A stretch of 62,397 nt of DNA, counting the filler. It is 4 parts of 4 records of this genome, joined end to end, with 100 filler letters (N's around TTAATTAATTAA, not from the genome) between each part and the next. Parts side by side here need not be neighbours in the genome. Positions count along the whole stretch, not along the records: positions 42,324 to 52,724 come from SRR31156797_164; 3 more parts are not named here. One strand, given 5' to 3'. A program made the position numbers and the translations under genes. The notes beneath the pieces were generated by a model. That model did not search any database and had not been told where the DNA came from. It saw only the letters and a list, made by a program, of their open reading frames with translations. Shown in pieces: positions 10,257 to 52,824 of this stretch (positions are counted from its first letter, which is position 1; each line of letters begins with the position of its first letter).

Positions 10257-11204
10257 TTAGACCATACGACTTCGTGCTAAAGCTTGAGTTTGCTGCTTTA
10301 GCAGCTGAACAAAGCGCAGTTCTATATCACTTAGGCTGACGGTATCTGGAGTCACTAAATAGATGTCAGTCACAGGTAACGATTCGTACGGAGGAAGGGG
10401 CCACAACAAATTCTGTGCGACAAAGGGCTTCGCACTCTCAACTGTTAAGGCGCCAAATCCCAAGCCAGCAAGGATCATACGACGAACTTCTTCCAAGTTG
10501 GACGATATTCCCACCAGCTTCCCCCAAAACTGTTCCTGATCACGGAACTGTGCTATCGCATCCAACCCCTCTCCTGGTTGGTCACTTTCAAACGAAACGT
10601 AAGGTAAACCACGAATATCTTCAATCACCAGACCTTCTTTACCAAAGCAGGGGTGGCTACGACCACAGTAAAACCCCATCTGTTCGTATCCTAAGAAATC
10701 GCAACGAACACCGGTTTTCGCTATTTTTTTATTGCTTAAACCAATACGTAAATTGCCATCAATCACATGACTGACAATGTCTGCACTTGGATACGTATTG
10801 ACATTAAAGATAACGTTAGGAAAAAGGCTATGGTATTCAGTAAGCGTAGAGTCAAATGCCGGACACTGTAGATGGCTGGCTATTTCTATGTTCAGTTCAC
10901 CTTGGATATTGTCCGTTTGATCAACAAATTGATCCGCCATTGTCCCAACGATGCGTCCGACTGACGAAGCATATTCATACACTCTCATGCCATGTAGCGT
11001 GAGAGTAAATACCCCTTTTTTCCGCAGAATTAATCGCTTATCAAAATGTTCCTCTAGTCGCTTCAGTGCGTTACTCACACTCGGCTGACTGAGTGATAAC
11101 CTACGAGCGGCTGCACTGATACCACCCTCATTAACAATGATTAGAAAAGTATAAAGGAGATTCCAATCCAAATTACGCAGCAACCTTTCCTTGGCGTTTA
11201 ACAT
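10257..11204 (-). CDS. LysR-family regulator
   Basis: N-terminal LTTR HTH (ISAAARRLSLSQPSVSNALKRLE); divergent from the ABC/dgc operon. Confidence 0.92.
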   Translation of the reverse strand: MLNAKERLLRNLDWNLLYTFLIIVNEGGISAAARRLSLSQPSVSNALKRLEEHFDKRLILRKKGVFTLTLHGMRVYEYASSVGRIVGTMADQFVDQTDNIQGELNIEIASHLQCPAFDSTLTEYHSLFPNVIFNVNTYPSADIVSHVIDGNLRIGLSNKKIAKTGVRCDFLGYEQMGFYCGRSHPCFGKEGLVIEDIRGLPYVSFESDQPGEGLDAIAQFRDQEQFWGKLVGISSNLEEVRRMILAGLGFGALTVESAKPFVAQNLLWPLPPYESLPVTDIYLVTPDTVSLSDIELRFVQLLKQQTQALARSRMV

Positions 11205-11231
11205 TCTAGAGTCCTACTTAATCAATTTACC

Positions 11232-11248
11232 CATAGCGATAGACTATG
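11232..11248. promoter_or_regulatory. LysR-type binding site
   Basis: CATAG-N7-CTATG dyad in the divergent promoter region. Confidence 0.6.
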
Positions 11249-11347
11249 TATATCATATTTATTCATGATTATGGGTTTTAACTGACTTTGTACATACTCC
11301 ATTCATAAATTAATCAAAAATGCATCCATTACGAAAAGGACATCACA

Positions 11348-12127
11348 ATGGCAAAAGCAAAACTATTAAGCACTTTGTTGGCATCAAGTATCGGTCTTCT
11401 TGCATCAACAGGTGCCAGTGCAGAATCCATTAAAATCGGTACTGAAGGCGCATACCCTCCATTCAACTACTACACAGCAGACGGTCAATTGGCCGGTTTC
11501 GATATCGAAATTGGTAAAGCGCTTTGTGAAAATATGAAAATTGAGTGTGAATTCGTCGCACAAGATTGGGATGGAATTATCCCTGCGCTCCTTGCTGGTA
11601 AATATGACGTCATTCTGGCTTCAATGTTTATTACTGACGAGCGTAAAAAGCAGGTTTCTTTTAGTCAGCCTTATCAGGCGTCTGCCATGACTTTTGTTGT
11701 TGATAAAAACTCTGGTATTAAAGATGTTTCTCCTAAGGCGTTGAAAGGCATGATCATTGGTGCTCAAAGTTCGACAACACAAGCTGAGTTCTTACTTGCT
11801 CAATATCCTGACTCAGAAGTTCGCCTTTACCCTACTCAAGATGCTGTAAACCTTGATCTGGCGAGTGGCAGAATTGACGCACAAGCTGGTGACATCATGC
11901 CAATGACAGACTGGTTAGCGACTGATGACGGTTCTTGCTGCGAAAAATCTGGCGCTTTAATCACTGACCGCACCTATGTGGGTGACGGAGTCGGTATGGC
12001 ATTACGTAAAGAAGACAAAGAGCTACTACAACGCTTAAACAAAGCTCTGGCAAATATCATTGAAGATGGTACATATCAGAAAATTAACGATGAGTACTTC
12101 TCTATCAACCTATTAACGCTTAAGTAA
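11348..12127 (+). CDS. Polar amino-acid ABC transporter substrate-binding protein
   Basis: Signal peptide, GTEGAYPPFN and WDGIIPALLAGKYD. Confidence 0.92.
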   Translation: MAKAKLLSTLLASSIGLLASTGASAESIKIGTEGAYPPFNYYTADGQLAGFDIEIGKALCENMKIECEFVAQDWDGIIPALLAGKYDVILASMFITDERKKQVSFSQPYQASAMTFVVDKNSGIKDVSPKALKGMIIGAQSSTTQAEFLLAQYPDSEVRLYPTQDAVNLDLASGRIDAQAGDIMPMTDWLATDDGSCCEKSGALITDRTYVGDGVGMALRKEDKELLQRLNKALANIIEDGTYQKINDEYFSINLLTLK

Positions 12128-12148
12128 GCTGTAGAAAATCAGGTTCAG

Positions 12149-12170
12149 TCGGTGGCTTCATTGCCACCGA
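12149..12170 (+). other. Intercistronic hairpin after the binding-protein gene
   Basis: TCGGTGGC-TTCATT-GCCACCGA with no U-tract. Confidence 0.55.
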
Positions 12171-12211
12171 GATTTACTCATAATCGTGAGAACAAAAGAG
12201 AGAATTGAGCA

Positions 12212-12928
12212 ATGGATTATCTGATGTACCTCAGTTTAGGGGATCAGGGATGGGGTGATGAACTGCTTAAAGGCTTAGCGGTTACACTTGGGTTAGCACT
12301 CTGTGCTCTCCCTGTCGGGATGGTCGTCGGCACTGGTGTTGCTGCACTCTCTGTGAGTCATAAACCTGCGAACAGGTGGTTTGCAACCACTTACACAACC
12401 GTTCTTAGAGGTCTACCTGAACTGCTCACTCTGTTTATCATCTATCACGGTGTCGGTTTACTGATTAACAACACGCTAAAATGGCTCGATCCAAGCAACG
12501 GATTTTTCGAACTGAACCCTTTTGGAGCAGGTGTTATCGCATTAGGTTTAGTGTTTAGTAGCTATGCCGCTGAGGTACTGCGTGGCGCTTGGAAAGCCAT
12601 AGATAAAGGACAGCGCGAAGCAGGCTATTCACTTTCTATGAGCCGCTGGATGATCTTCTGGCACATAGAGCGACCGCAGTTATTACGCTTAGCGCTTCCG
12701 GGGTTAGGGAACCTGTGGATCAACTTATTAAAAGACACGGCCTTAGTTTCCGTCATAGCACTCAACGATTTAATGCGCGCAGCCAATATCGCCGTCGGTG
12801 CCACAAAAAAGCCGTTCTTATTTTATCTAACCATTTGTTTGGTTTACTGGGCAGTTTGTGCCTGCTTTGAGCGTTTGATATCAAGAATGGAAATTCATTC
12901 GAAACGTGGAATACGTGTTAGCCGTTAA
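12212..12928 (+). CDS. Amino-acid ABC permease (HisQ-like)
   Basis: RGLPELL, GQREAG EAA loop, LLKDTALVSVI. Confidence 0.9.
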   Translation: MDYLMYLSLGDQGWGDELLKGLAVTLGLALCALPVGMVVGTGVAALSVSHKPANRWFATTYTTVLRGLPELLTLFIIYHGVGLLINNTLKWLDPSNGFFELNPFGAGVIALGLVFSSYAAEVLRGAWKAIDKGQREAGYSLSMSRWMIFWHIERPQLLRLALPGLGNLWINLLKDTALVSVIALNDLMRAANIAVGATKKPFLFYLTICLVYWAVCACFERLISRMEIHSKRGIRVSR

Positions 12929-12940
12929 CTGGAGACAGGA

Positions 12941-13660
12941 ATGTTAGAACTGATTGAAAAAGTCACTCCGATGTTGCTCAACGGTACATGGATGACCATT
13001 AAAATTACGGTAATTTCAGTGACTATCGCCTCCTTGTTAGCACTACCGGCGTCGATACTTCGAATTCAAAAGTCATCACTCTACCGAGTTCCAGTACAGT
13101 TGTTTATTTCGTTCTTTAGAGGAACACCACTCATTGCTCAGTTGTTCTTAGTCTACTACGGGTCCGGTCAGTTCCGTCCGTTCTTAATGGAAATAGGACT
13201 GTGGCATTTTTTTAGAGATCCAATGAACTGCGCACTTCTGACTTTTACGCTGAATTCATTAGCGTATCAGACAGAAATTATGCGTGGAGCAATTCAGTCT
13301 GTAGACGCAGGTGAAATTGAAGCAGCTAAATCAATGGGCATGAACAACAGCTTACTTTACCGACATATTATTCTGCCTCTGGCTTATCGCATTGCATTTC
13401 CAGCACTAGGTAATGAATGCATTTTAATGCTCAAAGGCGGAGCAGTCGCCAGTGTGATCACGGTGATGGATTTAATGGGACAAACTCGTCGCGCCTTTTC
13501 ACAAACTTTCGATATATCGACTTACTTTTTGGCTGCTGCGATGTATCTGATTATTACCACCAGCTTCGTCATTGCATGGCGCTACGCAGAGCGATACCTG
13601 TACCGGCATCAGGTCCAACGAGCACCAACGAACGAACCACTGCCGACAGCAGCAAGTTAA
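12941..13660 (+). CDS. Amino-acid ABC permease (HisM-like)
   Basis: FRGTPLIAQLFLVYYG, GEIEAAKSMG. Confidence 0.9.
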   Translation: MLELIEKVTPMLLNGTWMTIKITVISVTIASLLALPASILRIQKSSLYRVPVQLFISFFRGTPLIAQLFLVYYGSGQFRPFLMEIGLWHFFRDPMNCALLTFTLNSLAYQTEIMRGAIQSVDAGEIEAAKSMGMNNSLLYRHIILPLAYRIAFPALGNECILMLKGGAVASVITVMDLMGQTRRAFSQTFDISTYFLAAAMYLIITTSFVIAWRYAERYLYRHQVQRAPTNEPLPTAAS

Positions 13661-13740
13661 TACTTATCAATCCATATTTTTAATTTCTACAGGGGCAAAC
13701 GCTTCTGGGGGATTGTTTGACCTGAAAAAGGACACATACG

Positions 13741-29568: not shown

Positions 29569-29668
29569 NNNNNNNNNNNNNNNNNNNNNNNNNNNNNNNN
29601 NNNNNNNNNNNNTTAATTAATTAANNNNNNNNNNNNNNNNNNNNNNNNNNNNNNNNNNNNNNNNNNNN
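29569..29668. other. Artificial contig linker
   Basis: N44-TTAATTAATTAA-N44; the core has stops in all six frames. Confidence 0.98.
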
Positions 29669-39878: not shown

Positions 39879-39999
39879 TCAGCTAAATTGATAGGTTGCT
39901 TGGGTATTTTATATTCTTAATCAAATTGCATTAAGGAATTGCTAAGCATATAAGGTTTATATACTATTTTTTATATTTTTGTGCAATATTCTTTATGTT

Positions 40000-40290
40000 A
40001 TGGATTTATCTCTTATTTTTGATAAGTGTAACAGTTTTGTAGAAAAGTCCATTGGTGATGAAATGGTTTTAGTACCTTTAAGTAACAATGTGGCAGATAT
40101 GAATAAGGTTTACACTTTAAATGAAGTAGGGGCTTTTTTGTATAATAACATTGATGGTCACAAAAACATAAAAGAATTAAAGAGTGAATTGATTGAAAAA
40201 TATGAGGTCTCCGATGAGGTGGCATTAAAAGATATTAATAGTTTTATTAACGATATGGTTAATAAAGGCGTTTTATTCGAAAAACAATAG
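40000..40290 (+). CDS. PqqD-family / RiPP recognition element protein
   Basis: IGDEMVLVP, YTLNEVGAFLY..IDG and EKYEV....ALKDI..FI..M..KG pattern. Confidence 0.85.
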   Translation: MDLSLIFDKCNSFVEKSIGDEMVLVPLSNNVADMNKVYTLNEVGAFLYNNIDGHKNIKELKSELIEKYEVSDEVALKDINSFINDMVNKGVLFEKQ

Positions 40291-40311
40291 TTTAGAATAA
40301 GATTGATTTGA

Positions 40312-40536
40312 ATGAAAAAAAAGGATTTAATAAAAAGAGAATATAATAAGCCGGCTGTTGAAGTTGTGGAGGTTGATCATGAGATTTCATTGGTGATGAT
40401 GACAGGACCGCCTGCAGATGATGATATTCCAGAATTTGAAGCAGCTAAAGGGGTTGAAAAAGGTCCGATGCAGGCATCATCTCCGTCTTCAGTTTCAAAT
40501 CCTTTTGGAGGATCTTCTCCTGATTATGATAATTAA
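40312..40536 (+). CDS. Putative RiPP precursor peptide (74 aa)
   Basis: Basic leader with YNKPAVEVV (YxxP motif) then an acidic, Pro/Ser-rich tail; lies between the RRE and kinase-like genes. Confidence 0.65.
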   Translation: MKKKDLIKREYNKPAVEVVEVDHEISLVMMTGPPADDDIPEFEAAKGVEKGPMQASSPSSVSNPFGGSSPDYDN

Positions 40537-40545
40537 TGCTGGCGT

Positions 40546-41454
40546 ATGGGGGAGGTTGTTTCTAATTTAATACTCCAAATCGCAGAAATTAATTTTAATT
40601 GTTGTTTTTTCTATCCACTGGTTCCGAATAAAAAGGGATCTATCAATCATTACATAAATACAAAACCAGGTGGCGAACCTGATTATACCTTAGTTTATAA
40701 AATAATATCTTCTGTAGATACAGAAGGATATGTTTTAATGTTTAAAGGCGAGCCGGAAGAGAATGAATTCTTAAATTACAATTGGCGAGTTTTTAGAAAA
40801 GCTGAAAATATTTTAATAGTTGTAGATTTTCTGGATGCAACAGGAATAAAATCTATAGCTGCTAAATTAAAAAAAGATTCAGCTTCTGTAAGAATCGAAA
40901 TCGTTCCTTGCGATACTACTTTAGAAGCGGAGTTAGCTGTTGATCCTTTTATTCATCCATTGGGTTCTTTGTTATTGTTTTATTTAATGCAGCATAAGCA
41001 AGGTTTGTTGATTCATGCATCAGGAGTAATGTATGATGAAGAATGTTATTTGTTTACTGGTGTTTCTGGTATTGGAAAATCGACCATGGCAAACTTATGG
41101 GAGAAAAAAGGGGCTGCAGTTTTAAATGATGATAGGTTGGTCATTCGTCTTCAGGATGAAGTGAAGGTATATAATAACCCAATGCCTTATCAACAAGTTC
41201 CTCAAGGAGGAGTATTAAATAAAATTTTCTTATTAAAGCAATCGTCGACTAATTATATTGTTCCTGTTAAAGGAGTTGTGGCATATTCCAGATTATTGGG
41301 TAATTTTATTCAGCAGTTTTATGATAAAGATATCGTTAAGCGCCATTTAGAATTGATTGAAAAGTTGGTGCAATCGGTCCCTGTTTATGAAGTGGGTTTT
41401 ACGCCTGATACGGAAATTGTTGATCAAATTCTACAAATGAAGTCTGGTGAATAA
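40546..41454 (+). CDS. HprK-related P-loop kinase-like protein
   Basis: LIHASGV, GVSGIGKST and LNDDR motifs. Confidence 0.75.
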   Translation: MGEVVSNLILQIAEINFNCCFFYPLVPNKKGSINHYINTKPGGEPDYTLVYKIISSVDTEGYVLMFKGEPEENEFLNYNWRVFRKAENILIVVDFLDATGIKSIAAKLKKDSASVRIEIVPCDTTLEAELAVDPFIHPLGSLLLFYLMQHKQGLLIHASGVMYDEECYLFTGVSGIGKSTMANLWEKKGAAVLNDDRLVIRLQDEVKVYNNPMPYQQVPQGGVLNKIFLLKQSSTNYIVPVKGVVAYSRLLGNFIQQFYDKDIVKRHLELIEKLVQSVPVYEVGFTPDTEIVDQILQMKSGE

Positions 41455-41899
41455 GGATAGAAAAAAGGAATTCTTAATAGAAACAATGTCCTCGTTGCTG
41501 AATAAGGGCATGGATGTAAAAGTGCCAGTATATGGACTGAGTATGTTTCCTTTGTACCTGCCTGGAGATGAAGTTAGAATAAAGGCGACTGATATTTCTA
41601 AAGTACAAAAAGGTGATGTGGTATCGTTTGAAAGGAATTCTAGGATAGTATTGCATCGGGTGGTAAAAATCTTATCAGCTAAGAAACAAATAGTGACTAA
41701 AGGAGATGGCTTGGTTTTCAATGATGAGCAGATTAATTTTTCGGATATTGAAGGGCTTGTGGTGGAACATACGAGGAATGGTAAGGATCTTCATTTTTCG
41801 GAAAGGAAAAAGGTAAAGACATTCATGGCATTATTATCTCCAGTTATGGGTTGTATATTTTATTATACTTCCAGACTTTGGTATAAGTTAACGAACTGA
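41447..41899 (+). CDS. S24/S26-family peptidase
   Basis: GLSMFPLY..GD, GDVV, VLHRVV and TKGD; GTG start overlaps the upstream stop. Confidence 0.8.
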   Translation: MNKDRKKEFLIETMSSLLNKGMDVKVPVYGLSMFPLYLPGDEVRIKATDISKVQKGDVVSFERNSRIVLHRVVKILSAKKQIVTKGDGLVFNDEQINFSDIEGLVVEHTRNGKDLHFSERKKVKTFMALLSPVMGCIFYYTSRLWYKLTN

Positions 41900-42223
41900 T
41901 TTCTGATTTTTATAGTGAAGTTTATATTTCATTGCTTGTTAAAAAAAGTAACTGTAAAATTACTGTGATAATGCTCTGGGTTATGTTGTTTGTAATGAGT
42001 TGTTTGTGGTGTTGGGTTTGTTTTTTGACAATTGGAGGTGTTATCTAATTTGGCTATAAAAGCCTGTTTGGAAGAATTATGTCTTGAAATCTACTGAATA
42101 TTACAGGAAACCCAGTTGAAACGAATTGTTTTTGGCATATTACTGCTTTGAATTAGCTTTTGTGTGATTCTTCTTCGAGTCATGTTCGCAACCGCTTCGT
42201 AAGCGCTTCGCAAAGCTTCGATA

Positions 42224-42323
42224 NNNNNNNNNNNNNNNNNNNNNNNNNNNNNNNNNNNNNNNNNNNNTTAATTAATTAANNNNNNNNNNNNNNNNNNNNN
42301 NNNNNNNNNNNNNNNNNNNNNNN
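42224..42323. other. Artificial contig linker
   Basis: N44-TTAATTAATTAA-N44. Confidence 0.98.
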
Positions 42324-42348
42324 GCGAGTTCGAGTCTCGTTTCTCGCT
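42324..42348 (+). tRNA. 3' part of a tRNA, probably tRNA-Gly (truncated by the contig start)
   Basis: GCGAG-TTCGAGT-CTCGT T-arm plus TTCTCGCT acceptor strand, nearly identical to the tRNA-Gly(GCC) 3' end; the anticodon is not visible. Confidence 0.75.
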
Positions 42349-42365
42349 CAAAATCCAATAAGGAT

Positions 42366-42449
42366 GCCCAGGTGGTGGAATTGGTAGACACGCTGGACTT
42401 AAAATCCAGTGGCCTTTTGGCCGTGCGGGTTCAAGTCCCGCCCCGGGTA
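42366..42449 (+). tRNA. tRNA-Leu(TAA)
   Basis: D-arm GGAATTGGTAGAC, anticodon arm CTGGA-CTTAAAA-TCCAG, long variable arm GGCC-TTTT-GGCC, T-arm GCGGG-TTCAAGT-CCCGC. Confidence 0.97.
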
Positions 42450-42453
42450 CAAT

Positions 42454-42495
42454 AACCCTCATAAACAGCAATGTTTATGAGGGTTTTGTTTTTTT
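42454..42495 (+). terminator. Intrinsic terminator after the tRNAs
   Basis: AACCCTCATAAACA-GCAA-TGTTTATGAGGGTT followed by a T tract. Confidence 0.85.
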
Positions 42496-42897
42496 AAGGG
42501 AACGAATGGGGGAACGTTTGTGAGTATTAAAATTTCAGTTTAAAATAACTAGATAATCTCAGAAAAGAATTTTTGATCCTTTAAAGAACCCATTTAAGGC
42601 GATTTACAACTATTTTATGAGATAATCTACGTCTAATCCCAATGCAATCATTCAAAGCCTTCAAAAGAATTGTAATGATCTTTTCATCGATGATTAGAGT
42701 TTAAACCTTCCCAGAAATATCACAATTAAATAACGAATCCATACAAGAAAAACTAATGAAGAATTCGTTATTTCGATAATAGTTTAAGAATAATAGGCAT
42801 TGGCAATAAATCAGTTGTTAAATTCATTTCTAAAACTTGCCTGAATATTCAAATTTATTGATAATTTCATGCCAATATTAAAGCTATAAATAATATT

Positions 42898-43184
42898 AAA
42901 CACCTGGCTATTGACCATGCATTGCGAAATCGTAATGTTAAAACTAATGTGAGAAATTAGATGAAGTTTGAAATATGAAGTAATCTATAAGTTATTATAT
43001 TGATTTATTATTTTATAATGATTCAATTATTATTTTATGATACTTTTTATGAATAATTATTCTCCCTTAAACAATAAGTTATTAATGATATTATTGGGCT
43101 CTTATAGTATTTATTAAAAATATTTATTTAACAAGTATTATATCTTAATAATGGTTCATACAAAAGAGAATACGCCAGGTGTTT
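42898..43184 (+). ncRNA. Retron msr-msd non-coding RNA (predicted)
   Basis: Terminal inverted repeat AAACACCTGGC-TATT (42898-42912) / AATA-C-GCCAGGTGTTT (43169-43184); unpaired G at 42913; short stem-loops at 42919-42938 and 42944-42960; long imperfect hairpin at about 43018-43159; adjacent to a retron-type RT. Confidence 0.8.
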
Positions 43185-44875
43185 TTTTAGACTTTAATTT
43201 TAAAGAAGATGTTAGAGCCAAATTTCAAAAAATACAGACGGTAAGACAATTTGCAGTTCTTCTAAATTTTATTGAGAAATCAAATAAGCCAGAGGATCTT
43301 AGAAAAAAAATTTCTGCAAGAGATTTGCACTTTTTGGCAATTTCAAAAGATCGAAGATATACGGGTTTTTTCATCTCTAAAAAAAATGGGGATAAAAGAA
43401 AGATAAATACGCCTGATGATTACCTTAAAAGAATTCAAAGTGTAATTAATACGCTATTGCAAATAATATTTGAGAATCACGTTCATTATAATACAAATGG
43501 CTTTTTAATAAGTAGAGATATTGTTAGAAATGCAATCCCACATGTAAACAAAAAATATTTATTAAACATTGATATTGAAAACTATTTTCCATCAATTCAG
43601 TTTCGAAGAATTAAAACTGTTTTGGGTCTTTCTCCTTTCAATCTAAAAGAATCTCGCGAGAAAATTGGATTCATCATTGCAAATATATGTTGTTATGATG
43701 GAGTTTTGCCACAAGGTGCTCCAACATCTCCGATTATATCAAATATTGTAACTCAAAAACTTGACCGAAGAATTACAAAGCTATGTAATAAAGAAAAGAT
43801 AAAATATAGTCGCTATGCTGATGATTTAAGTTTTTCATCAAATAAGGATATAAATAATAAATATTTCATAAAAAGAATATCAACCATAATCATATCGGAA
43901 AACTTTAAATTAAATGATAGTAAAACTAGACTTAAAACAAATAGAGATAGGCAACAAGTAACAGGAATAATAGTTAATCAGAAGCTCAATGTGAGCAGAA
44001 AATATATTCAAAAAACAAGAGCAATATTAAATAATTGGGAAAAGGGAGGTCCTGAATTCGCACAAGAGAAATTCAACTTACATTATTTAATCGAGGATAA
44101 GGGATTACCAGATTTCAGAAAAGTACTATCTGGATATATTAGTTTTATTGGTTTAGTACGAGGGAGAGAAGATACTTTATACAAGAAACTTATTTTAAAG
44201 TATGGATTTTTAAAAAATCAAATTAACTATGATTTCATCTCTAATTTGGATGTGAAAAATCGTTTGGTAAAGGATAATATTAATATGGAAATGTTACTTT
44301 TTGAATCACTTCATTCAGATAGGGATCGTTTCATTTTGTTTTGTACTAGGGCATTTCATCAAATTGAAAATCTAATAAATTTTCATTATTGGAATAGATT
44401 TCCTGAAATGCCTAAATTACTCCAGTTTCTAAAAGAGAATAATCCAATTTTACAAAAAAAATGGAAAAAACACACACCTAATTTTAAGGAAATTGGAATG
44501 TTAAATATTGAACTGCTTGTTTATGCTTATGAAAAAGAATTTTATTTTGATAAAAAGATTCCATACCACAAGGATATTACATTGTTAAGAGAAATTCGTA
44601 ATGATAATTCACATCGATGTGAGGTTGTTAATTACAATATTCAACAAATTCGTATTGATTATGGTAAAATCAAAGAGTTAAATAAAAAATACTTGGAAAA
44701 ACATAGGAAATTTAGACCACTCACAACGAGTGAGGAGAAAATTAAGGTAAAATATAAGGTAATTAGACTTGTGGAAGATGAAAATTATAAACGTGTAAGG
44801 AAAATTTTAAAGAAAATTGTATCTCAAATTAAAGATACTAAGTATTCTACTCACTCCACTCTTCCAATCTCATAA
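43151..44875 (+). CDS. Retron-type reverse transcriptase with C-terminal HEPN-like domain
   Basis: NAIPH (region X, aa127), DIENYFPSI, LPQGAPTSP, YADD (aa222) and VTG (aa270); the ~220-aa tail has FHQIE and RNDNSH (aa483-488). Confidence 0.88.
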   Translation: MVHTKENTPGVFLDFNFKEDVRAKFQKIQTVRQFAVLLNFIEKSNKPEDLRKKISARDLHFLAISKDRRYTGFFISKKNGDKRKINTPDDYLKRIQSVINTLLQIIFENHVHYNTNGFLISRDIVRNAIPHVNKKYLLNIDIENYFPSIQFRRIKTVLGLSPFNLKESREKIGFIIANICCYDGVLPQGAPTSPIISNIVTQKLDRRITKLCNKEKIKYSRYADDLSFSSNKDINNKYFIKRISTIIISENFKLNDSKTRLKTNRDRQQVTGIIVNQKLNVSRKYIQKTRAILNNWEKGGPEFAQEKFNLHYLIEDKGLPDFRKVLSGYISFIGLVRGREDTLYKKLILKYGFLKNQINYDFISNLDVKNRLVKDNINMEMLLFESLHSDRDRFILFCTRAFHQIENLINFHYWNRFPEMPKLLQFLKENNPILQKKWKKHTPNFKEIGMLNIELLVYAYEKEFYFDKKIPYHKDITLLREIRNDNSHRCEVVNYNIQQIRIDYGKIKELNKKYLEKHRKFRPLTTSEEKIKVKYKVIRLVEDENYKRVRKILKKIVSQIKDTKYSTHSTLPIS

Positions 44876-44960
44876 TGTATTTTTTAATTCTTATTTGTCA
44901 GTTCAATAAAATAATGCCATAGTATAATACTATCATTTAAAGACTTTCGAGAATGTGCAG

Positions 44961-45039
44961 AAAACATGAGTTTACAGAGAATCACACTCTACAATAAACT
45001 ACTTTTTAAGCGTTTATTAAGACGGATTAGCGGAGAAAC
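44961..45039. repeat. Copy 1 of an imperfect ~80-bp direct repeat
   Basis: AAAACATGAGTTTACAGAGAATCACACTCTACAATAAACTACTT...GACGGATTAGCGGAGAAAC aligns with 52542-52620 and 52677-52724. Confidence 0.85.
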
Positions 45040-45240
45040 AAGCTAATTGATCAGGTTTTAATTACCAGGGTACACCTTACAGGAAGTTGACATAGAGTAT
45101 TTATGAGGTTAAAGTTTCACTAGAATTGCAATTTTACTCAGTAATCCATAGTTCTGGTGCATCTTAGGTAAATTTATATTTATATTATTACTCCGATTTA
45201 CTCCCCACTAATTTTCAGACTTTTGGATATTCAAGCAATA

Positions 45241-45485
45241 TTATTTCCGACTTGAATTAATTTTATAATCAATTAATAACTTACCTTCAATTGCATTTAA
45301 TGATTCAAAATTCACAAAACAAGTATCATGGTACCAATCTGAATTGTAATCTACTTTAAGCCTTCCTGATATAGTATCTGATTTATAAAGAACGGTATTA
45401 ATCCATCCTTTTGATAGAACACCACTTGTTGTCAACCAGATCTACCTTTTCAACATACTCTATTCGATTTTTGAATAAGCCAATT
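45241..45485 (-). pseudogene. Possible degraded gene fragment
   Basis: 64-codon ORF with no good start; the frame continues upstream through one TAG (IGLFKNRIEYVER*IWLTTSG) up to the stop of the preceding gene. Confidence 0.3.
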
Positions 45486-45487
45486 CA

Positions 45488-47779
45488 CTAATTCCTTTCA
45501 AAAATTGCATCGATATCACTCTCTGATTTTTTTTGAGCGGAAAATAGTCCTCTATATTCACCATCATAACTATCATGATATGTTCTACTAATATACTCAT
45601 CTACTTCTTTATCGACATCTACACTTTCTACTATATCCGAATCATCAACAGATACATACTTGAATAATTCTTCATCAAGATCAGATAATATTGAATCAAG
45701 AATCGATTCGATCTCTCCTTGTATTCCTGAATAATCTATATCATAATCTACATCTCCATCGTCATTGCAGTATCCATTAATATATTGACCTATATCCGCA
45801 GAACTCTTATTATCTTCGAGCACGTCTCTTAAGAATGAATCTACCTCTTCACCTAGATTTTCAAAAAGCATTTCATCTTTAATCTTATACTCTTTTATTA
45901 GTTTCACTACCAAATTAATCTCTATTTCATCTAAAGAATTGCACTTAATATATTCGGTAACAAAAGAAAAATCCTTGATTTTAAGACAATCTTTAAACTC
46001 TAGAAGCAATTCCAAAAGTTCATATATCTTTCTCCCTTTAACATATTTATAATTTGACATTTCGTTAACCAAACTAGCTATTTTGCAGACTATGTGAGGG
46101 TTAGTGAAATTTAAGCTAGAAAGCAATATTAGATAATCCCATTCTCCCAATTTTATTTTGGCTTTGTAGAAATGTTCAAACAACTCATTTTGAATATCCT
46201 GAATTGATTGTTTTGATATTTTTTTATTTAATAGTAAGCTTCTCAGAAAAACGATAGAAGAATATGAACCAAGAGATTTTAATATGGATATAATTAATTC
46301 ATTTTCTTCTAAATAGTAGTTTAAAATAAAATCACTAATGGAGGGATTAAACATAGAGTATTCATATAAATCACCACGTATATGACTCCGATTTAACATG
46401 GATTTTATTGCCAATTTCCTAACCGTATTAAAACTACCATCAGTATGATCAATTTGAATTTTAAATTTGCTTCTATAAGTTGAATAAGCCCTTCTCAACT
46501 GTTTTTCACTTATTTGTCCTGAGTTAAAAACAGTTAAAAAGGATAATACTCTTACAGAGTCATCAATTTGATTTTGAAAATAGTTACTCCAAATATCTTC
46601 AGGATTATCAAGTTTATTAACTATATAGTTCCAATATTGATCTGGTTTAATTGCAGAAACTCGTTTATTATCCGTTATAAATTCAACAATCCTAGGATTA
46701 AAGTTTTTATGACTTATGATATTCTTGTACCTTTCTTTTTTATATATCTCGTCAATGTAATTGATATCGAGGTTTGAATGATAAATATGATTATAAAGGA
46801 TTTTTGCTTTATCTATGTCTGATAAACTTTCAATTTTTAACAAGAACTCATCTTCTCTAATATTTTTATTTTGAAATTGATGACTCAAACTAACAGCTTT
46901 TGTAAGGATGTTTGTTCTAGAAGTAAGAATGAATTTTTTTGAGTTATCATGTTTAACTCTATTAATGAATTTTACTATATGAGAATCTCGTTTTTTACTT
47001 ATAGCATCATACATGTTGCTACCTAGAAAATCATCACAATAAAATATTATTTTCTTGTTTTCTTTTTCACGAAACAATTGCTCAGCTTCACTAATAGATT
47101 CTTCAATATCACAAAACTCATATCCTTTTGCGATATAAAAAAGAGCTAAATTATTTGCTAGGGTCGTTTTTCCAATTCCTGGTTCACCTGAAATAATAAT
47201 AACATTATTATTCTTTAAAATCTCAGCTCCTTTTTTATGGTTATTTGTAATAACGTATCTCTCATTATGGGATTTAATTTCTTTTATTGTGCTTTCACTT
47301 CTGCCTTTAATGGCATTATGAAGTAAAATGTCTAATACCTGTGTACTTGTTATCCACAGTTTATAATTCTGTTCAACAATATTTTGGTTTTCTTTTTTTG
47401 AAAGAAAACTATTAATATCGCCTTCACCCCAGACATCTGACTCGGATTTAATATAGGGAGAAAATATAGTAGATATTTCTTTTTTGTTCTCTCTTGATAA
47501 TGAAATAGAACTAATAAAAATGTACCTAGCGGGCTTAAGTTTTTTTACTTTATGGACTTCCTCTTTCTTTAATTTACTAATTAAACCCCGATATCCTGTC
47601 CTCCAATAATGCTTACATTGGATAATACCTTCTTTTTTACCAATCCAAAAACGTCCATCAACTCCACCATCTTTACCCGCTTTGAATTTCTCAATTTTAA
47701 GATTCAGAACAGCTGAAATAATATCAGCAGATAGAGATTCAAACTCTCGGTCATTTAATTTAGATAAAAAGTACTCCAT
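45488..47779 (-). CDS. Mrr-like restriction endonuclease fused to STAND-type (nSTAND3-like) NTPase
   Basis: N-terminal EFE..DGGVDG..IIQCKHY; Walker A GEPGIGKTT, Walker B CDDFLG, ILTSR and FNPRIVE; very acidic C-terminus. Confidence 0.8.
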   Translation of the reverse strand: MEYFLSKLNDREFESLSADIISAVLNLKIEKFKAGKDGGVDGRFWIGKKEGIIQCKHYWRTGYRGLISKLKKEEVHKVKKLKPARYIFISSISLSRENKKEISTIFSPYIKSESDVWGEGDINSFLSKKENQNIVEQNYKLWITSTQVLDILLHNAIKGRSESTIKEIKSHNERYVITNNHKKGAEILKNNNVIIISGEPGIGKTTLANNLALFYIAKGYEFCDIEESISEAEQLFREKENKKIIFYCDDFLGSNMYDAISKKRDSHIVKFINRVKHDNSKKFILTSRTNILTKAVSLSHQFQNKNIREDEFLLKIESLSDIDKAKILYNHIYHSNLDINYIDEIYKKERYKNIISHKNFNPRIVEFITDNKRVSAIKPDQYWNYIVNKLDNPEDIWSNYFQNQIDDSVRVLSFLTVFNSGQISEKQLRRAYSTYRSKFKIQIDHTDGSFNTVRKLAIKSMLNRSHIRGDLYEYSMFNPSISDFILNYYLEENELIISILKSLGSYSSIVFLRSLLLNKKISKQSIQDIQNELFEHFYKAKIKLGEWDYLILLSSLNFTNPHIVCKIASLVNEMSNYKYVKGRKIYELLELLLEFKDCLKIKDFSFVTEYIKCNSLDEIEINLVVKLIKEYKIKDEMLFENLGEEVDSFLRDVLEDNKSSADIGQYINGYCNDDGDVDYDIDYSGIQGEIESILDSILSDLDEELFKYVSVDDSDIVESVDVDKEVDEYISRTYHDSYDGEYRGLFSAQKKSESDIDAIFERN

Positions 47780-47882
47780 TTTAATTGTATCGCAAGGTTA
47801 ATCGTTGTTTTACAAAGTGTTGCAATCTCAACAGAATGCGCATTTTTTGAACACTGCAACTAATTATTGTTTGTATTTTTAC

Positions 47883-48479
47883 TTAAATATTTGAATACAT
47901 TTCATCAAATAAAATTCTAGATTGATTATTATTTCTTAAGTTTCTCAAATAATTCTCAAAATCATTTATTATATCACTTAAAAACTTTTTAGGACTTATC
48001 TTTATATCATCACCTCCGAAATTAATACTATTGCTAAAATTATTATTAATTATAATTCTACCTTGTACCATACCATTGTGAAATAATCCACATCTTGCTT
48101 CAGAGTATAATTTTCCTAATTGGTTCCTTTCAAATCTATTAGGATATAGTCTATTCATTGCAGCCACAAAGAATCTTTTGCTGTTACCATTACTATTTCT
48201 TCCTTGTCTATATTGCTCAATTCCTTCCAAGTATGATAAACAGATCATTAAAACAACAAATCCTTTATTTCGATTTTTGTAATTGACTAAATTTAAAGCT
48301 GGATCCAAGAACCACCCTTTCACCTGCCTTTCATATATATTTATTTTGTCATTTACGTTTCTTGGGTCTAATTGTCTATTATCTCTTTCATCTAACACCT
48401 GAGCTTCGCCATTTTCATCTATCCATCCAAATATTTCTGGTGCAATATAAATTGGTTCTCTACGTAGTTTTTTAGGCAT
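47883..48479 (-). CDS. HEPN-like protein
   Basis: Helical-looking 198-aa protein with SYLEGI and an Rx4H motif (RCGLFH). Confidence 0.55.
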   Translation of the reverse strand: MPKKLRREPIYIAPEIFGWIDENGEAQVLDERDNRQLDPRNVNDKINIYERQVKGWFLDPALNLVNYKNRNKGFVVLMICLSYLEGIEQYRQGRNSNGNSKRFFVAAMNRLYPNRFERNQLGKLYSEARCGLFHNGMVQGRIIINNNFSNSINFGGDDIKISPKKFLSDIINDFENYLRNLRNNNQSRILFDEMYSNI

Positions 48480-48727
48480 ATTATAAATTCATTTTTTGGC
48501 ATTAATTTTTTAAAACACTCACGATCTTAACTTTTAATAGGAAAATTCACATTTACACCAAAAATATTTACCGTAGAGGATTACATGGTTGTTTGTATCA
48601 ATCCTGTATTGTATTAATATAAACCACAACCTCTTTAACACTTATTTGCTTTATCATTTACACACAACACCTATTGAAATTAATTTTTTTTAATAAACAT
48701 TCTATTGATTTGAGTGTAACTATTCTT

Positions 48728-49684
48728 CTACTTTTTTGTTGGAAGAATTTGAGTATAACGTGCGACCAGAGATCCATCTAGTACTTTAAATTTATATGGC
48801 TCATCTTGTGTCGGTGCTTCTCCCCAAAAGAATATATATGCATGTTTTTTCTTATCCTCTTCGTTTTTCTTAAATGCATTTATTTTATCATCAATAGCAT
48901 AATTAATTTCATTTTTAATTCTACTTACCTTATTCTTGGAAATTAGGGATTTATTGACACTAACAATAAATGGATTTATTTGTTCTGCTGGCTTATTCTT
49001 GTCTCCTTTTTCCCATCCTTCACTTTCAAACAAGGTAATTTCTAAAGTTTCTTCAGTTTCAACTATTTTACGTCTACTTGTATGCAATCGACCAAAGAAG
49101 ATTCTCTTTCCTTTATAGTTACCAGTTGATAAAGGCTTTTCTATTCTTTTAAACCAATACATATACATTTTTTGTACATCCTCAATCTCAAGTTCTATTC
49201 CTCTATTATATGGACACCGAATGTAAAAATCAACTATCGGAGAAATAGATGCTACAACTTTTGACTTGTTTAATATTTCGATAAACTCTCCTGATGATTG
49301 TTTTCTTATTCCTTCTCGACCAGTATTTTCTTCTTCCTCAACATTTAATTTGAACGTTATATCATCACCTTCTTTTTGTTTTATTTTCTTAAACTTTGTT
49401 GGGAAAGGCATATCTTCCAATTCAAATTCTGTAAGCGCCCTATTCCTAGCTTTTTCTAATAACTTCAAGTATTCACTAAACTTACAGAAATCTCTATGTC
49501 TCTCTCCTTTTAATGACTTAAAATATGGTCTATTTTTATTTATTGGTTTATATGAGCATGGTACTAATTTTAATCTACAATTCTCATCAATGCATTCAAA
49601 TTCTGATAAACCATCTTCATAAATATGCTTCAACGACTCTGCATCTATAATCTCACCTGTTCTTACCTCTCTTGCTTGATTCAT
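48728..49684 (-). CDS. Hypothetical protein with a putative N-terminal Zn-binding module
   Basis: 318-aa ORF; CIDENC...RPYF...HRDFC pattern. Confidence 0.6.
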   Translation of the reverse strand: MNQAREVRTGEIIDAESLKHIYEDGLSEFECIDENCRLKLVPCSYKPINKNRPYFKSLKGERHRDFCKFSEYLKLLEKARNRALTEFELEDMPFPTKFKKIKQKEGDDITFKLNVEEEENTGREGIRKQSSGEFIEILNKSKVVASISPIVDFYIRCPYNRGIELEIEDVQKMYMYWFKRIEKPLSTGNYKGKRIFFGRLHTSRRKIVETEETLEITLFESEGWEKGDKNKPAEQINPFIVSVNKSLISKNKVSRIKNEINYAIDDKINAFKKNEEDKKKHAYIFFWGEAPTQDEPYKFKVLDGSLVARYTQILPTKK

Positions 49685-49889
49685 TTTGGTATTTTATTCT
49701 ATTATCTTAATACACACTTAGCAATGTATTCCTAAGTAACGAATTTATGCCAACGTTAAATTCAAAGAATAGTGGCGGATTTCGTAGTTCTTTCTTGTCA
49801 GAATACTATGCAGCTAATCAAAATACAACTTCTGATATTTAACTCTTTTTACCTGTTATTTCCAATACAAAAAAACAATAGTATTTTAA

Positions 49890-50255
49890 CTATTTTCTTT
49901 CACCTTTAGGGTTTTCAACTGTAGTCCATCTCTGATATTCATTTGTAAATTTATTTCGAAAACTTCTCATTGAAGCACTATATTGACCTATAATCAGAAT
50001 CGCATCACTATTTGATGGAAGGCTCTCATCATCAAGCAAATCTAAAAATTCAATTGTTGGTTCATCTTTCAGAACTTCTTTTACCTGCTCAAGAATACGA
50101 TTAACATTTTTTACCTTAAACTTATTCAGTGGTTCATCAGGTTTTTTCTTTGAAAATTCCTTCATCTCAGTGTAAACTGAACTCACTAATTGAGATAACA
50201 TTAGAAATTTATCAACTAATGAATTCGACGGTAATTTAAGTTTTCTTTTTGCCAT
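49890..50255 (-). CDS. Hypothetical protein, paralog of 50255-50650
   Basis: Shares SKK....LN.FK.K.VN..L and P.NSD..L...QY; TAATG coupling to the upstream gene. Confidence 0.75.
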   Translation of the reverse strand: MAKRKLKLPSNSLVDKFLMLSQLVSSVYTEMKEFSKKKPDEPLNKFKVKNVNRILEQVKEVLKDEPTIEFLDLLDDESLPSNSDAILIIGQYSASMRSFRNKFTNEYQRWTTVENPKGERK

Positions 50256-50650
50256 TATTTTTTAATATTTTTTGGTGGATAAGTTTCAATTTTTGTTCCT
50301 TTCCATTTCCAAAATATTTTTGCTACACTTCCACCGGATGTATATTCAATTTTTGATGTGATATTTTCTTCTCTCAAGCTTTCCATGCAATTAATATACT
50401 GTGCAAGAACTAAGGTAACATCACTATTAGTAGGAACATCTTCTTCTTCAAATTTTTCAAAATCATCAAAGGGTCTATAACTGTCTCCTATAAGATTATT
50501 TGCTCGATTTAATACTTGGTTGACTAACTTTAACTTGAAAGTATTCAACGCATCTGTATACGATTTCTTTGATAATGTTGAAATTTCACTGTGTAAACCT
50601 TCAAGTTGATTTAATATCTTTTTAAATTCCTCAATATCTAAATTTTCCAT
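50255..50650 (-). CDS. Hypothetical protein, paralog of 49890-50255
   Basis: Same shared motifs; starts 10 bp after the nuclease-like gene. Confidence 0.75.
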   Translation of the reverse strand: MENLDIEEFKKILNQLEGLHSEISTLSKKSYTDALNTFKLKLVNQVLNRANNLIGDSYRPFDDFEKFEEEDVPTNSDVTLVLAQYINCMESLREENITSKIEYTSGGSVAKIFWKWKGTKIETYPPKNIKK

Positions 50651-50660
50651 AGTTATAAAT

Positions 50661-52034
50661 TTAAGACGGACACGCCCTTATAAACTCAATGTATTTCTTT
50701 TTTATTACCTCAATTGGATTTCGTTGTTTACTAATAAAAACTTGTGTCATAAGCTGCAAATCCGAATCATCAAGAATGAGAATACACCTTCTTTGCCCCG
50801 CCCACAAATCGATTGTGTTTTTAAATACTTTTTTTAGTGGCGGATTTCTTGTTATAAGAATTCCAAATTTTCCAAATTGATCATTTAAGTATCTATTTAA
50901 TTGAAAAATATGTTCTCTTGAAACTTCTTTTACATTTTTTAGCTCAAAAACAATTTGTTTTGAATCAAAGGTCTCATATACATCTTGTAGGAAATCTGTT
51001 GAGCTATTGTTATAAAACACTAAATCACGAATTAAAACACCAGAATCTGTACGGCTCTGTTCTGCGGCAAAGTCTAGGTGAGGATATAGTAAGGATGCTA
51101 ATAATTGACAAACAGCATCTTCATATTTCCTATCTGCATTATCTGATTTACCAGTTGGTAACTTTGTAATTATGGATATTTTCCTTTTTGCAGATGTAAT
51201 AGGTATTTGATTAAACATTGGGTCATTTTTGCAATTCTCAAATTGTCTTTCTTTAATTGCAGTATATGCCTTGACGATGTCGTAATTATGCCTATTAAAA
51301 TCTAGCAGTTTAATTTTATTAGGAAATTCATCGCCTTCCTTATGAATATTTTCAGTATAAAAATTTTTATAATAATCATCTGTATTAATCCATGGCATAA
51401 ATTTTAACCACCTTTTGGGTATTAACAAAATTGGAGTTTTTGCTATGGGGTTTACTGGCAGGTGAGTTTCTTCTTCTCCAAACCTATTAGTCTTAGGATT
51501 ATATAGATTGTTTAATTTGACTTTCTCAATAGGTATACCATATTTTTCGGATTGTTCAATTGTGAAATCAACTAAAAATGATTGGATGAAATTGCATGCA
51601 ACATCACTTATCCTGTCTTTAGAAAAATTATCCACAAGTAATTGAATTTCCTCAAAATGAATAAAACCGTTTTTATTCAAATGAGGGATTAATTTAAATT
51701 GATTTAATATATTTTGGGCTATTTTCTTACCAATTCTTTTTCCTGATTTTGTCTTTGAGTTTCCTAAACCAACTTCGTTACATTCGGATGCTCTAATAAG
51801 TAACTTTTGAGCTTCATCCTCTCTTCCCTTAGAAGTTAAATACCCAAGATGATTAAAACTATTTGTTATGAGTAGGTGTAAAGAATTGTCTTGCATTGAT
51901 GGAGATTTCCATAAAAGAAATGGATCTACATATAAAGGGATATCTTCATCAACAAATGGAATTGCAAAGTCAACTTCCTCCTGTGTAATTGGGATGTTAT
52001 GAAAATCGTTTAATCTTGGTCTAATTATGCTCAT
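50661..52034 (-). CDS. Hypothetical protein with a C-terminal PD-(D/E)XK-like nuclease domain
   Basis: YED...RDLVFYN...IVFELKN...QLNRYL pattern; N-terminal DIPLYVDPFLL domain. Confidence 0.65.
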   Translation of the reverse strand: MSIIRPRLNDFHNIPITQEEVDFAIPFVDEDIPLYVDPFLLWKSPSMQDNSLHLLITNSFNHLGYLTSKGREDEAQKLLIRASECNEVGLGNSKTKSGKRIGKKIAQNILNQFKLIPHLNKNGFIHFEEIQLLVDNFSKDRISDVACNFIQSFLVDFTIEQSEKYGIPIEKVKLNNLYNPKTNRFGEEETHLPVNPIAKTPILLIPKRWLKFMPWINTDDYYKNFYTENIHKEGDEFPNKIKLLDFNRHNYDIVKAYTAIKERQFENCKNDPMFNQIPITSAKRKISIITKLPTGKSDNADRKYEDAVCQLLASLLYPHLDFAAEQSRTDSGVLIRDLVFYNNSSTDFLQDVYETFDSKQIVFELKNVKEVSREHIFQLNRYLNDQFGKFGILITRNPPLKKVFKNTIDLWAGQRRCILILDDSDLQLMTQVFISKQRNPIEVIKKKYIEFIRACPS

Positions 52035-52485
52035 TCTTCATTTAAATTCTGAGTAACTTTATTACAAAAACCATTTGATTGATACCTATCTAATGTCTTT
52101 TCTTATTTAAGGCAGTATAATACATTGGTAAAACAACTGATCACTTTTATTATACTATAACAAATAAGATCTATAAAATTAACAGTTTGACTACGAATTA
52201 TATTAAGATCATAATATAATTGCCTGACTATTAGGCAATATTAATTAAGACTAAATTAAGTGTTATTGCATAGGTAAGTAATTCATTGTTAGTATAGCTT
52301 GAGTAAAAGAATATCTATACCTACTTATTTTTTCAATTTACATATCTAAAATCAATTTGTTTGATGTTGTTATCACCCCGACATTTAGAGATATTTTCGG
52401 CTTTTGGTGTAAATTGTATTGAAAATTCATCCTAAAAAAGTCGGTTTTATACTATCGTAGAATGTGTTAATGTGAATTTTAAGAT

Positions 52486-52724
52486 GGATAAATAAGGAAT
52501 ATGAAGTAATATTCCACTGGTAAAAACATTCTTATCCCATTAAAACATAGGGTTTACAGATAATCACACTCTGCCATAAGCTACTTATTAAACGTTTATA
52601 AGACGGATAAACGGATAAACGGATAAATAGGATATTTAAAGTAGTATTTCAACGGTAAAAACTCTCTTATATCCTTAAAACAATGGATTTGCAAATAATC
52701 ACACCCTACTATAAGCTACTTACT
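52486..52724. repeat. Tandem imperfect 135-bp repeat (second unit cut by the contig end) containing (ACGGATAA)x3
   Basis: GGATAAATA at 52486 and 52621 and AAAACA at 52542 and 52677 are both offset by 135 bp; ACGGATAA at 52603, 52611 and 52619. Confidence 0.85.
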
Positions 52725-52824
52725 NNNNNNNNNNNNNNNNNNNNNNNNNNNNNNNNNNNNNNNNNNNNTTAATTAATTAANNNNNNNNNNNNNNNNNNNN
52801 NNNNNNNNNNNNNNNNNNNNNNNN
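52725..52824. other. Artificial contig linker
   Basis: N44-TTAATTAATTAA-N44. Confidence 0.98.

Follow-up and report, generated by a model that had tools for sequence, protein, structure and literature searches.

A retron-lineage reverse transcriptase fused to a probable HEPN domain and preceded by a covarying non-coding RNA

Introduction

Can a retron carry a HEPN ribonuclease (RNase) in the same polypeptide as its reverse transcriptase (RT)? The question is raised by one gene in a 62,397-nucleotide stretch of DNA (hereafter the window), an intact open reading frame (ORF) of 574 amino acids (aa) with an ATG start, which was originally predicted, from the letters alone, to be a single-gene retron with a fused HEPN-like effector. 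Our analysis makes it probable that this is indeed a one-protein retron, in which the RT would make multicopy single-stranded DNA (msDNA) that restrains the fused HEPN RNase, most plausibly as an anti-phage system. The parts of the gene are as follows.

43151-44875, plus strand: RT-HEPN fusion gene, 574 aa, with 13 full-length homologues in a collection of 5.8 billion proteins
43307-44170, plus strand: retron-type RT domain with thumb, aa 53-340, containing NAIPH, YADD and VTG
44234-44842, plus strand: helical domain of HEPN-like type, aa 362-564; it contains RNDNSH, an Rx4H motif (44597-44614), and a QIE helix (44360-44368)

The window consists of contigs joined by linkers of the form N-TTAATTAATTAA-N, where TTAATTAATTAA is a six-frame stop (29569-29668, 42224-42323 and 52725-52824). 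Because neighbours across a joint are not real, the genuine context of the fusion gene is 42324-52724 only. No co-oriented gene follows the fusion ORF on this contig, the next ORFs, from 45241 onward, all lying on the minus strand, which agrees with the original prediction that a separate co-oriented effector gene is lacking.

The reverse transcriptase

Judged by its sequence, the RT of the fusion gene belongs to the retron lineage, where it comes closest to the retrons with fused effectors (Ec67/Eco2, type XI and type XII). The intact RT core read in the original prediction was recovered with all three of its motifs: NAIPH (aa 127-131, 43529-43543), of which N127, A128, P130 and H131 are invariant in 14 fused homologues, and YADD (aa 222-225, 43814-43825) and VTG (aa 270-272, 43958-43966), both invariant in the same set. 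According to the excerpts of Mestre et al. (2020; PMC7736814) that are cited here and below, NAXXH (region X, between RT2 and RT3) and VTG (region Y, RT7) characterise retron RTs, and the single-gene retron types I-C, XI and XII belong to RT clade 8.

Profile searches agree with this placement. Pfam RVT_1 spans aa 75-274 (E = 3.3e-22), and the best PADLOC models are RT-Protease_XI (2.2e-98), RT-TIR_XII (1.8e-90) and RT-Toprim_I-C (1.9e-87). The retron RT models as a whole range from 1e-47 to 2e-98, with RT_IX much weaker than the best (1.4e-47), and their matches are confined to the RT part, about aa 53-361; the group II model (3e-18) and the Drt2/3/4 models (1e-10 to 5e-06) score far below them. 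The NCBIfam retron-TIR and Ec67 models also match the RT part, below their cut-offs (Retron_TIR, 266 bits against a cut-off of 600). One alignment of RT-Toprim_I-C extended over aa 57-564, and a Toprim domain at the C-terminus was considered and rejected, since the C-terminal part alone matches no PADLOC model.

The closest sequence in the Protein Data Bank (PDB) by phmmer is Ec67/Eco2 (7.4e-38), followed by Ec86 (3.6e-33), with the type IX Kva2 RT at 9.9e-24. When the full-length structure model (pLDDT 73, a predicted score on the local distance difference test) was searched with Foldseek, Eco2 again came first (8.8e-14), ranks 1-15 were all retron RTs, and AbiA stood 42nd. Identity between the RT and that of Eco2 is about 26-27%. 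PADLOC, PDB phmmer and Foldseek all rank retron RTs first, as the original assignment of the RT to retrons would have it.

The upstream non-coding RNA

The msr-msd transcript of a retron is a non-coding RNA (ncRNA) defined by terminal inverted repeats, a1 and a2, that pair with each other, and it has a branching G (PMC7736814); its msr forms one to three hairpins. About 700 nt without an ORF separate the fusion gene from the tRNA gene upstream of it, and the homologous loci all have at least about 330 nt of non-coding sequence ahead of the RT gene. The original prediction had merely assumed an RNA here; a covarying RNA closed by an a1/a2 helix was found at 42898-43184, with the following parts.

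42898-43184, plus strand: predicted retron ncRNA (msr-msd), 287 nt, closed by the a1/a2 helix
42898-42908, plus strand: a1 arm AAACACCTGGC, 11 nt, 100% complementary to a2
42909-42975, plus strand: conserved msr block, 83% mean column identity over 13 loci, containing the hairpin 42919-42938 GCATTGCGAAATCGTAATGT
42913, plus strand: candidate branching (priming) G, invariant, in a conserved ATTGA block directly 3' of an inner ATATT/AATAT helix
42976-43173, plus strand: region presumed to be the msd (template), AT-rich; a long imperfect hairpin is predicted within it at about 43018-43159
43174-43184, plus strand: a2 arm GCCAGGTGTTT, within codons 8-12 of the fusion ORF

Alignment of the upstream regions of 14 loci showed a conserved block of about 75 nt, corresponding to 42898-42972 of the window. 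In this alignment (A4) the a1/a2 helix, of 10 bp, is 100% paired and 4 of its 10 pairs have changed on both sides, a covariation score equalled in 0 of 500 shuffles; pairing was 27-48% when the 3' partners were slid by 1-3 columns, versus 97.5% unslid. The inner ATATT/AATAT helix is kept as well, and the msr hairpin is 100% paired in the 14 sequences, with two more hairpins predicted by the minimum free energy (MFE) fold. The 287-nt RNA folds at -64.6 kcal/mol (z = -4.80; none of 200 shuffles as stable), and the opposite strand gives a z of -2.64. The msd hairpin is present in the MFE fold and also as an inverted repeat (I2, arms 43026-43049 and 43129-43152), and the 3' part of the msd region, GTTCATACAAAAGAGAATA, is conserved at the nucleotide level.

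A covariance model of the msr (R1), trained on 13 loci and searched against 901 kb, recovered the msr in L001, L015 and L021, fused loci that had taken no part in the training, each time 210-310 nt upstream of the RT gene; no further match was obtained in the 901 kb, and in the window the model matched only at the ncRNA. The closing helix is kept with very different sequences in L001, L015, L016, L021 and L022. The a2 arm lies at +6 in L022 and upstream of the start codon in the other four, so that coding constraint cannot account for the pairing of a1 with a2. The G at 42913 occupies the position of the retron priming G and is a candidate for that role by the retron rule given in PMC7736814. 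One may speculate that the fold of the ncRNA affects translation of the RT, a2 overlapping the first codons of the gene.

Searching 41900-45500 against Rfam (E <= 10) returned the tRNA and chance-level rows only, with no known retron RNA family. In most fused loci a second conserved block, GTTAGGCAAAATAT, lies upstream of a1 by about 45-60 nt (about 42840-42862 in the window) and may be the promoter of the ncRNA-RT transcript. A scan for sigma-70 promoters gave 27 sites against 20 expected; Bacteroidota promoters fall outside the model of that scan.

The C-terminal domain

The domain that follows the RT is probably a HEPN domain, as the original prediction proposed, an assignment that we regard as likely because HEPN-like folds are matched by its structure model and because an R-N-x-x-x-H motif is invariant in it. 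The excerpts of PMC7736814 give the HEPN signature as Rx4-6H with a polar residue after the R. Here Q404-I-E406 (aa 404-406, 44360-44368) and R483-N-D-N-S-H488 (aa 483-488, 44597-44614), the helix and the motif noted in the original prediction, supply residues of catalytic type: R483, N484, H488, Q404 and E406 do not vary among 14 fused homologues, nor do they when 49 stand-alone homologues are aligned. Ten residues are invariant between the window domain and these 49 relatives (L372, D375, M379, C398, Q404, E406, R483, N484, H488 and R489), in an alignment of 22% mean column identity. RNxxxH is present in all 18 intact fused C-termini, in 12 of 19 ORFs from two-gene loci, those lacking it being the most divergent ones or truncated, and in 136 of 150 representative homologues.

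AlphaFold2, given the family alignment as input, returned a confident all-helical domain (pLDDT 88.3, predicted template-modelling score 0.84). In a wide VIA-align search of 48,161 PDB chains with this model, the top eight matches were HEPN proteins by title or by general background (5yep_B, 1ylm_B, 2hsb_A, 1wwp_B, 8xdj_A, 7ae2_A, 1jog_A and 4nqf_B; Z 8.0-9.5 over 112-131 aligned residues). They are followed by chains that we take to be the Roquin HEPN region, the AbiA C-terminal domain (8oz7_A, Z 7.6), sacsin HEPN, Csm6, LsoA, RnlA, HepS and AbiV. The word HEPN is stated in 8 of the 50 listed titles, the other HEPN identities resting on general background. This structure search, proposed with the original prediction, thus places HEPN proteins at the top in VIA-align.

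No named sequence family covers the domain. Residues 335-574 (240 aa) have no PADLOC match, no NCBIfam match and no meaningful Pfam match, and 50 members of the HEPN-like family gave only scattered single matches over the Pfam and PADLOC searches taken together, with 0 matches in PADLOC. One of the 50 matches Pfam HEPN_LA2681 (0.005), and the nearest named ESM Atlas clusters are Csm6 HEPN (0.93), a weak result with recognition below the mark. A search of phage and plasmid collections with the C-terminal domain (tblastn) gave no match. Prediction of a complex of two copies of the domain scored 0.00, which speaks neither for nor against pairing.

Fused and two-gene relatives

As far as sequence can tell, an unclassified RT + HEPN system of Bacteroidota is present in the window in its fused form. 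When 1.84 billion representative proteins were scanned with the C-terminal domain, 154 relatives were found at E <= 0.001, a few of them fusions of about 550-580 aa and most of them proteins of 220-320 aa. With each of 185,579 species represented by one genome, a further scan confirmed 443 relatives, and the locus counts that follow concern the best 80 of these. RT-HEPN fusions occupy 19 of the 80 loci, and a separate HEPN-like ORF lies downstream of the RT in 12. Another RT-effector fusion, in which a HisKin-conflict domain (PF22561, with E as low as 6e-53) forms the C-terminus of the RT protein, was observed in 19 (for example L024, L038 and L077) and is matched by PADLOC through its RT part only; one locus, L069, encodes a complete RT-protease of type XI.

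Nearly all of the fused loci come from Bacteroidota, mainly Flavobacteriaceae, with hosts that include Tenacibaculum discolor, Flavobacterium araucananum, Flavivirga aquatica, Salegentibacter, Lutibacter, Dokdonia, Zunongwangia and Psychroserpens, and their neighbouring genes vary. The Tenacibaculum and Flavobacterium homologues are named at NCBI only as 'reverse transcriptase domain-containing protein'. One fused RT, on a contig binned as Robiginitomaculum of the Pseudomonadota (L010), is near-identical to that of Flavivirga aquatica (L012; branch lengths 0.02 and 0.01), which suggests either faulty binning or a very recent transfer.

Among 400 further genomes sampled from the class, a stand-alone HEPN-like gene was present in seven, and in all seven it lies directly downstream of a related RT (38-43% identity). 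These two-gene loci (L092-L098, for example L094 at 7801-9827) and those found before (L027, L029, L055, L056, L061, L064, L067, L070 and L080 among them) come in many cases from gut or rumen Bacteroidales, and their second gene is unnamed in PADLOC and Pfam. The stand-alone proteins belong to the HEPN-like family (hmmsearch E as low as 6e-71) and are longer at the N-terminus by 60-90 residues. Inverted repeats resembling a1/a2, 180-240 nt apart, lie by the RT start in 4 of the 5 assessable sampled two-gene loci; the R1 model gave no match on two-gene loci. Since the HEPN-like domain is mostly a separate gene beside related RTs, the fusion represents one variant within a broader two-gene family, itself unclassified, and the occurrence of one pair in fused and split forms is a classic sign of a functional couple.

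The RT tree (85 rows; L017, L018 and L044 dropped for short RT matches) unites 16 of 19 fused RTs, including that of the window, in one clade (Shimodaira-Hasegawa-like approximate likelihood-ratio test 97) that spans many genera of Flavobacteriaceae; the nearest relatives of the window RT are L001 (65% identity) and L015. L021 and L022 form a second fused pair, and L016 joins a two-gene RT in a position flagged for long-branch risk. The fused RTs share a supported split with the bona fide type XI genes L069 and L073.

Two-gene loci also bear on the possibility that the gene is left over from, or an accessory to, some larger multigene system and does not function alone. TOTE-type genes, namely a superfamily 1 helicase with TBP-TOTE and a TPR-DUF7017-S1CSD-TOTE protein, follow 5 of the 7 sampled two-gene loci (L094 at 3606-7326, L095 at 9955-13666, L096, L097 and L098), which are 5 of all 19 two-gene loci, and this suggests that the RT + HEPN-like pair can be a module of, or a partner to, TOTE systems. 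In contrast, tblastn with both TOTE proteins gave no match in the window, 0 of 18 fused loci (L017 left out) carry such genes, the fused ORF is intact, and neighbours vary from locus to locus. Membership of the window gene in a TOTE system was rejected on this absence, and dependence on TOTE-type helicase and TPR-OB genes or on any other such multigene system seems to us very improbable. Rather, because the 16 fused RTs form a well-supported clade across many Flavobacteriaceae genera, the fusion appears to be kept as a self-contained unit.

Proposed mechanism and the evidence against it

In the one-protein retron that we favour, the ncRNA of about 287 nt (42898-43184) would be co-transcribed with the RT gene, its ends paired by a1/a2, and the RT domain would copy the msd part into msDNA, primed from the conserved G by the closing helix. 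The C-terminal domain would be a HEPN-fold ribonuclease with the invariant RNxxxH as its site, held inactive by the msDNA/ncRNA in analogy with Eco2 and type IX. A phage factor, for example a nuclease, would then damage or sequester the msDNA and free the HEPN domains, which would most likely pair to form the composite active site typical of HEPN enzymes and cut tRNA or other RNA, so that translation stops in abortive infection or dormancy. We infer msDNA synthesis, RNase activity, trigger and defence function from such analogies.

Several observations weigh against this scheme. Two fused homologues are broken, which indicates that the gene is not always maintained. In one of them, from Flavivirga aquatica (L012), a TAG stop leaves 421 aa, and in the other (L017) there are ORFs of 204 and 304 aa; both are either decaying copies or assembly errors. 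A comparable single helix (10-12 bp, G-U allowed) arises in 0 to 41 of 200 shuffles per locus, and since one such helix is not rare in AT-rich DNA, the case for the ncRNA depends on covariation and on the constancy of its position. Retrons are expected to have a long msd stem-loop; one is predicted in the window, and no consensus for it emerged from the set of loci, the region being AT-rich, hard to align and variable in sequence and length. As for the C-terminal domain, Z values of 8-9.5 lie within the range that helical bundles can reach by chance, by VIA-align's own caution, so that the fold evidence alone is moderate. Foldseek of the C-terminal model against the PDB gave no match at E <= 0.001, the family profile gave none against PDB sequences at E <= 10 (hmmsearch), and hhalign of that profile with one HEPN_LA2681 protein gave a non-significant alignment (probability 0.3, E = 0.18), with the Rx4H motifs superposed.

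The observations on the RNA leave room for a system that makes no classical branched msDNA, with the ncRNA serving another mode of RT-based defence, such as infection-induced cDNA of the kind made by defence-associated RTs (DRT type) or protein priming as in AbiA, and with the HEPN domain as executioner. Besides the lack of an msd consensus, the branching G is a candidate only, and AbiA shows, in the part of the RT review cited here, that an RT-HEPN fusion can work without msDNA. Against this, the RT has the retron-specific NAXXH and VTG, retron models fit it about 80 orders of magnitude better than Drt2/3/4, AbiA is only 42nd in structural rank, and the ncRNA has the end-paired layout that defines msr-msd transcripts, and we hold such a mode of action to be unlikely.

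The observations on the fold raise the alternative that the C-terminal domain is not a nuclease, but either extends the RT as a structural or nucleic-acid-binding part (for oligomerisation or the handling of msDNA/ncRNA) or is an adaptor of HEPN-like kind without catalytic activity, with the effector elsewhere or absent. The lack of a sequence-level match to any HEPN family, the Z values in the chance range and the Foldseek result all fit that view. However, R, N and H of the motif are invariant together with Q404, E406 and D375 over fused and stand-alone forms at about 22% mean column identity, a pattern typical of an active site and not of a scaffold, the top eight structural matches are all HEPN by title or by general background, and the domain also occurs as a separate gene beside RTs, as retron effectors do. 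There is accordingly little to recommend a non-catalytic role over that of a HEPN RNase.

Comparison with known systems

The closest known counterpart in layout is retron type I-C (Ec67/Eco2, RT-Toprim), likewise one protein chain in which a retron RT precedes a C-terminal effector that cuts RNA (predicted in the present case), with the ncRNA upstream. In Eco2 the msDNA cages the Toprim domain, and degradation of the msDNA by the phage nuclease DenB releases it to cut tRNA (PMC12916289, a 2026 paper cited here from excerpts). The effectors differ, that of Eco2 being a metal-dependent Toprim and the one described here a HEPN-like bundle of helices that has Rx4H. Types XI (RT-protease) and XII (RT-TIR) share the single-gene layout and provide, with I-C, the best-scoring RT models. 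In contrast to them, no trypsin-like protease or TIR domain forms the C-terminal part, and the matches end at about residue 361. Comparison with classified retron subtypes, by which the original prediction could have failed, gave no PADLOC match of the C-terminal domain to any I-C, XI, XII or IX effector model.

Retron type IX (Retron-Kva2, Retron-Yin1) consists of an RT, an ncRNA, a separate HEPN protein and a WH/KH-HTH protein, and resembles the window gene in its HEPN effector, predicted in our case. Excerpts of two 2026 bioRxiv preprints describe msDNA and the WH/KH protein as occluding the HEPN site until a phage nuclease frees it and tRNA and rRNA are cut. Here, instead, RT and HEPN-like part form one protein, and a winged-helix partner gene is absent; the type IX RT moreover belongs to clade 7, another clade than that of the window RT. 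The excerpts of PMC7736814 describe the type IX HEPN as lacking the canonical H of Rx4-6H, and this H is invariant in the window family. No sequence similarity to the type IX HEPN was found for the 50 family members in PADLOC, or for the family profile in a PDB sequence set that includes the Kva2 RT entry and may or may not include its HEPN chain.

Lactococcal AbiA also has an RT followed by a HEPN domain in one protein. It belongs to an Abi/UG lineage that, in the cited part of the RT review, is without RT motif 7, whereas VTG/RT7, NAXXH and an a1/a2 ncRNA all go with the RT of the window, and the Pfam search returned no HEPN_AbiA_CTD for the window protein. Like AbiK, AbiA is thought to make untemplated DNA linked to the RT (2021 RT-classification paper, in excerpt). 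The two-gene loci have the HEPN-like family and related RTs in common with the fusion and differ in having two separate genes, in some cases beside TOTE genes.

Genomic context

The contig that carries the fusion gene starts with the 3' end of a further tRNA-like gene, immediately ahead of the tRNA-Leu gene upstream of the fusion, and the remainder of its 10.4 kb is occupied on the opposite strand by defence candidates named by PADLOC and by unnamed ORFs.

42366-42450: tRNA-Leu, followed by a terminator-like hairpin at 42454-42485
45488-47779, minus strand: PDC-S73 (Mrr_cat nuclease with nSTAND3 NTPase; PADLOC 7.6e-247)
48728-49684, minus strand: PD-Lambda-4_B-like protein (PADLOC 2.5e-24)
49890-50255, minus strand: PDC-M36B (PADLOC 1.2e-43)
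47883-48479, 50255-50650 and 50661-52034, minus strand: unnamed ORFs, one with a weak PDDEXK_3 match

The setting resembles a defence island beside tRNA genes. On another contig of the window, a small cluster at 39979-41899 comprises ORFs of 103, 74, 302 and 150 aa, of which the 74-aa ORF has a Pro/Ser/Gly-rich tail and the 302-aa ORF a P-loop-like GVSGIGKST motif; from its list of ORFs it looks like a peptide-maturation cluster.

Discussion

How new is an RT-HEPN fusion among retrons? The cited excerpts of Mestre et al. (2020) list Toprim, TIR and protease fusions in clade 8 and HEPN only as the separate protein of type IX, as in the original prediction, and those of the 2026 Eco2 paper give I-C, VII-A1, XI and XII as the fusion retrons. 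Across the literature searched, the retron fusions are with Toprim, DUF3800, protease and TIR only. An RT-HEPN fusion retron was found neither in the retron classifications nor in PADLOC nor in the full-text literature, a search to which the supplements of Mestre et al. and the 2022 TOTE review did not belong; the full-text literature contained no retron type XIV, and combined retron, Bacteroidota and HEPN only in unrelated papers. The tentative original statement that no characterised RT-HEPN fusion retron was known therefore stands for the classification papers and PADLOC. It does not extend to RT-HEPN fusions at large: AbiA, of another RT lineage, is the one named in the consulted parts of the 2013 HEPN survey and the 2021 RT review, and its fused HEPN domain is described also in those of the 2021 RT-classification paper. 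With its own ncRNA, the window fusion is a retron in lineage and layout, and both the effector fusion and the effector family were not found in the classifications checked.

A broader proposal, to which we give nearly even but slightly lesser prospects, is that the HEPN-like family, a clade-8-like RT and an a1/a2 ncRNA together make up a whole unclassified retron type, common in its two-gene form, gut and rumen Bacteroidales included, and fused in Flavobacteriaceae and relatives. In the fused form msDNA would control the pairing of HEPN domains between protomers, without a masking partner protein such as that of type IX.

Retrons have two uses, as models of immunity by abortive infection and as tools with which DNA is produced in cells. 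A natural RT-HEPN fusion would be a fifth kind of RT-effector fusion beside the four listed, and, as a one-protein counterpart to the multi-subunit type IX, it allows the gating of a HEPN RNase by msDNA without an adaptor protein to be asked about directly, the ncRNA model (a1, conserved msr, and a2 over the start of the RT gene) supplying the coordinates for cloning. Because a HEPN-like family that adjoins retron-type RTs is absent from Pfam and PADLOC, defence-system finders probably under-call retrons in Bacteroidota, including gut Bacteroidales. If the broader proposal of a whole retron type is true, one polypeptide and its own msDNA would act as sensor, switch and RNase, and would constitute the smallest HEPN-based retron.

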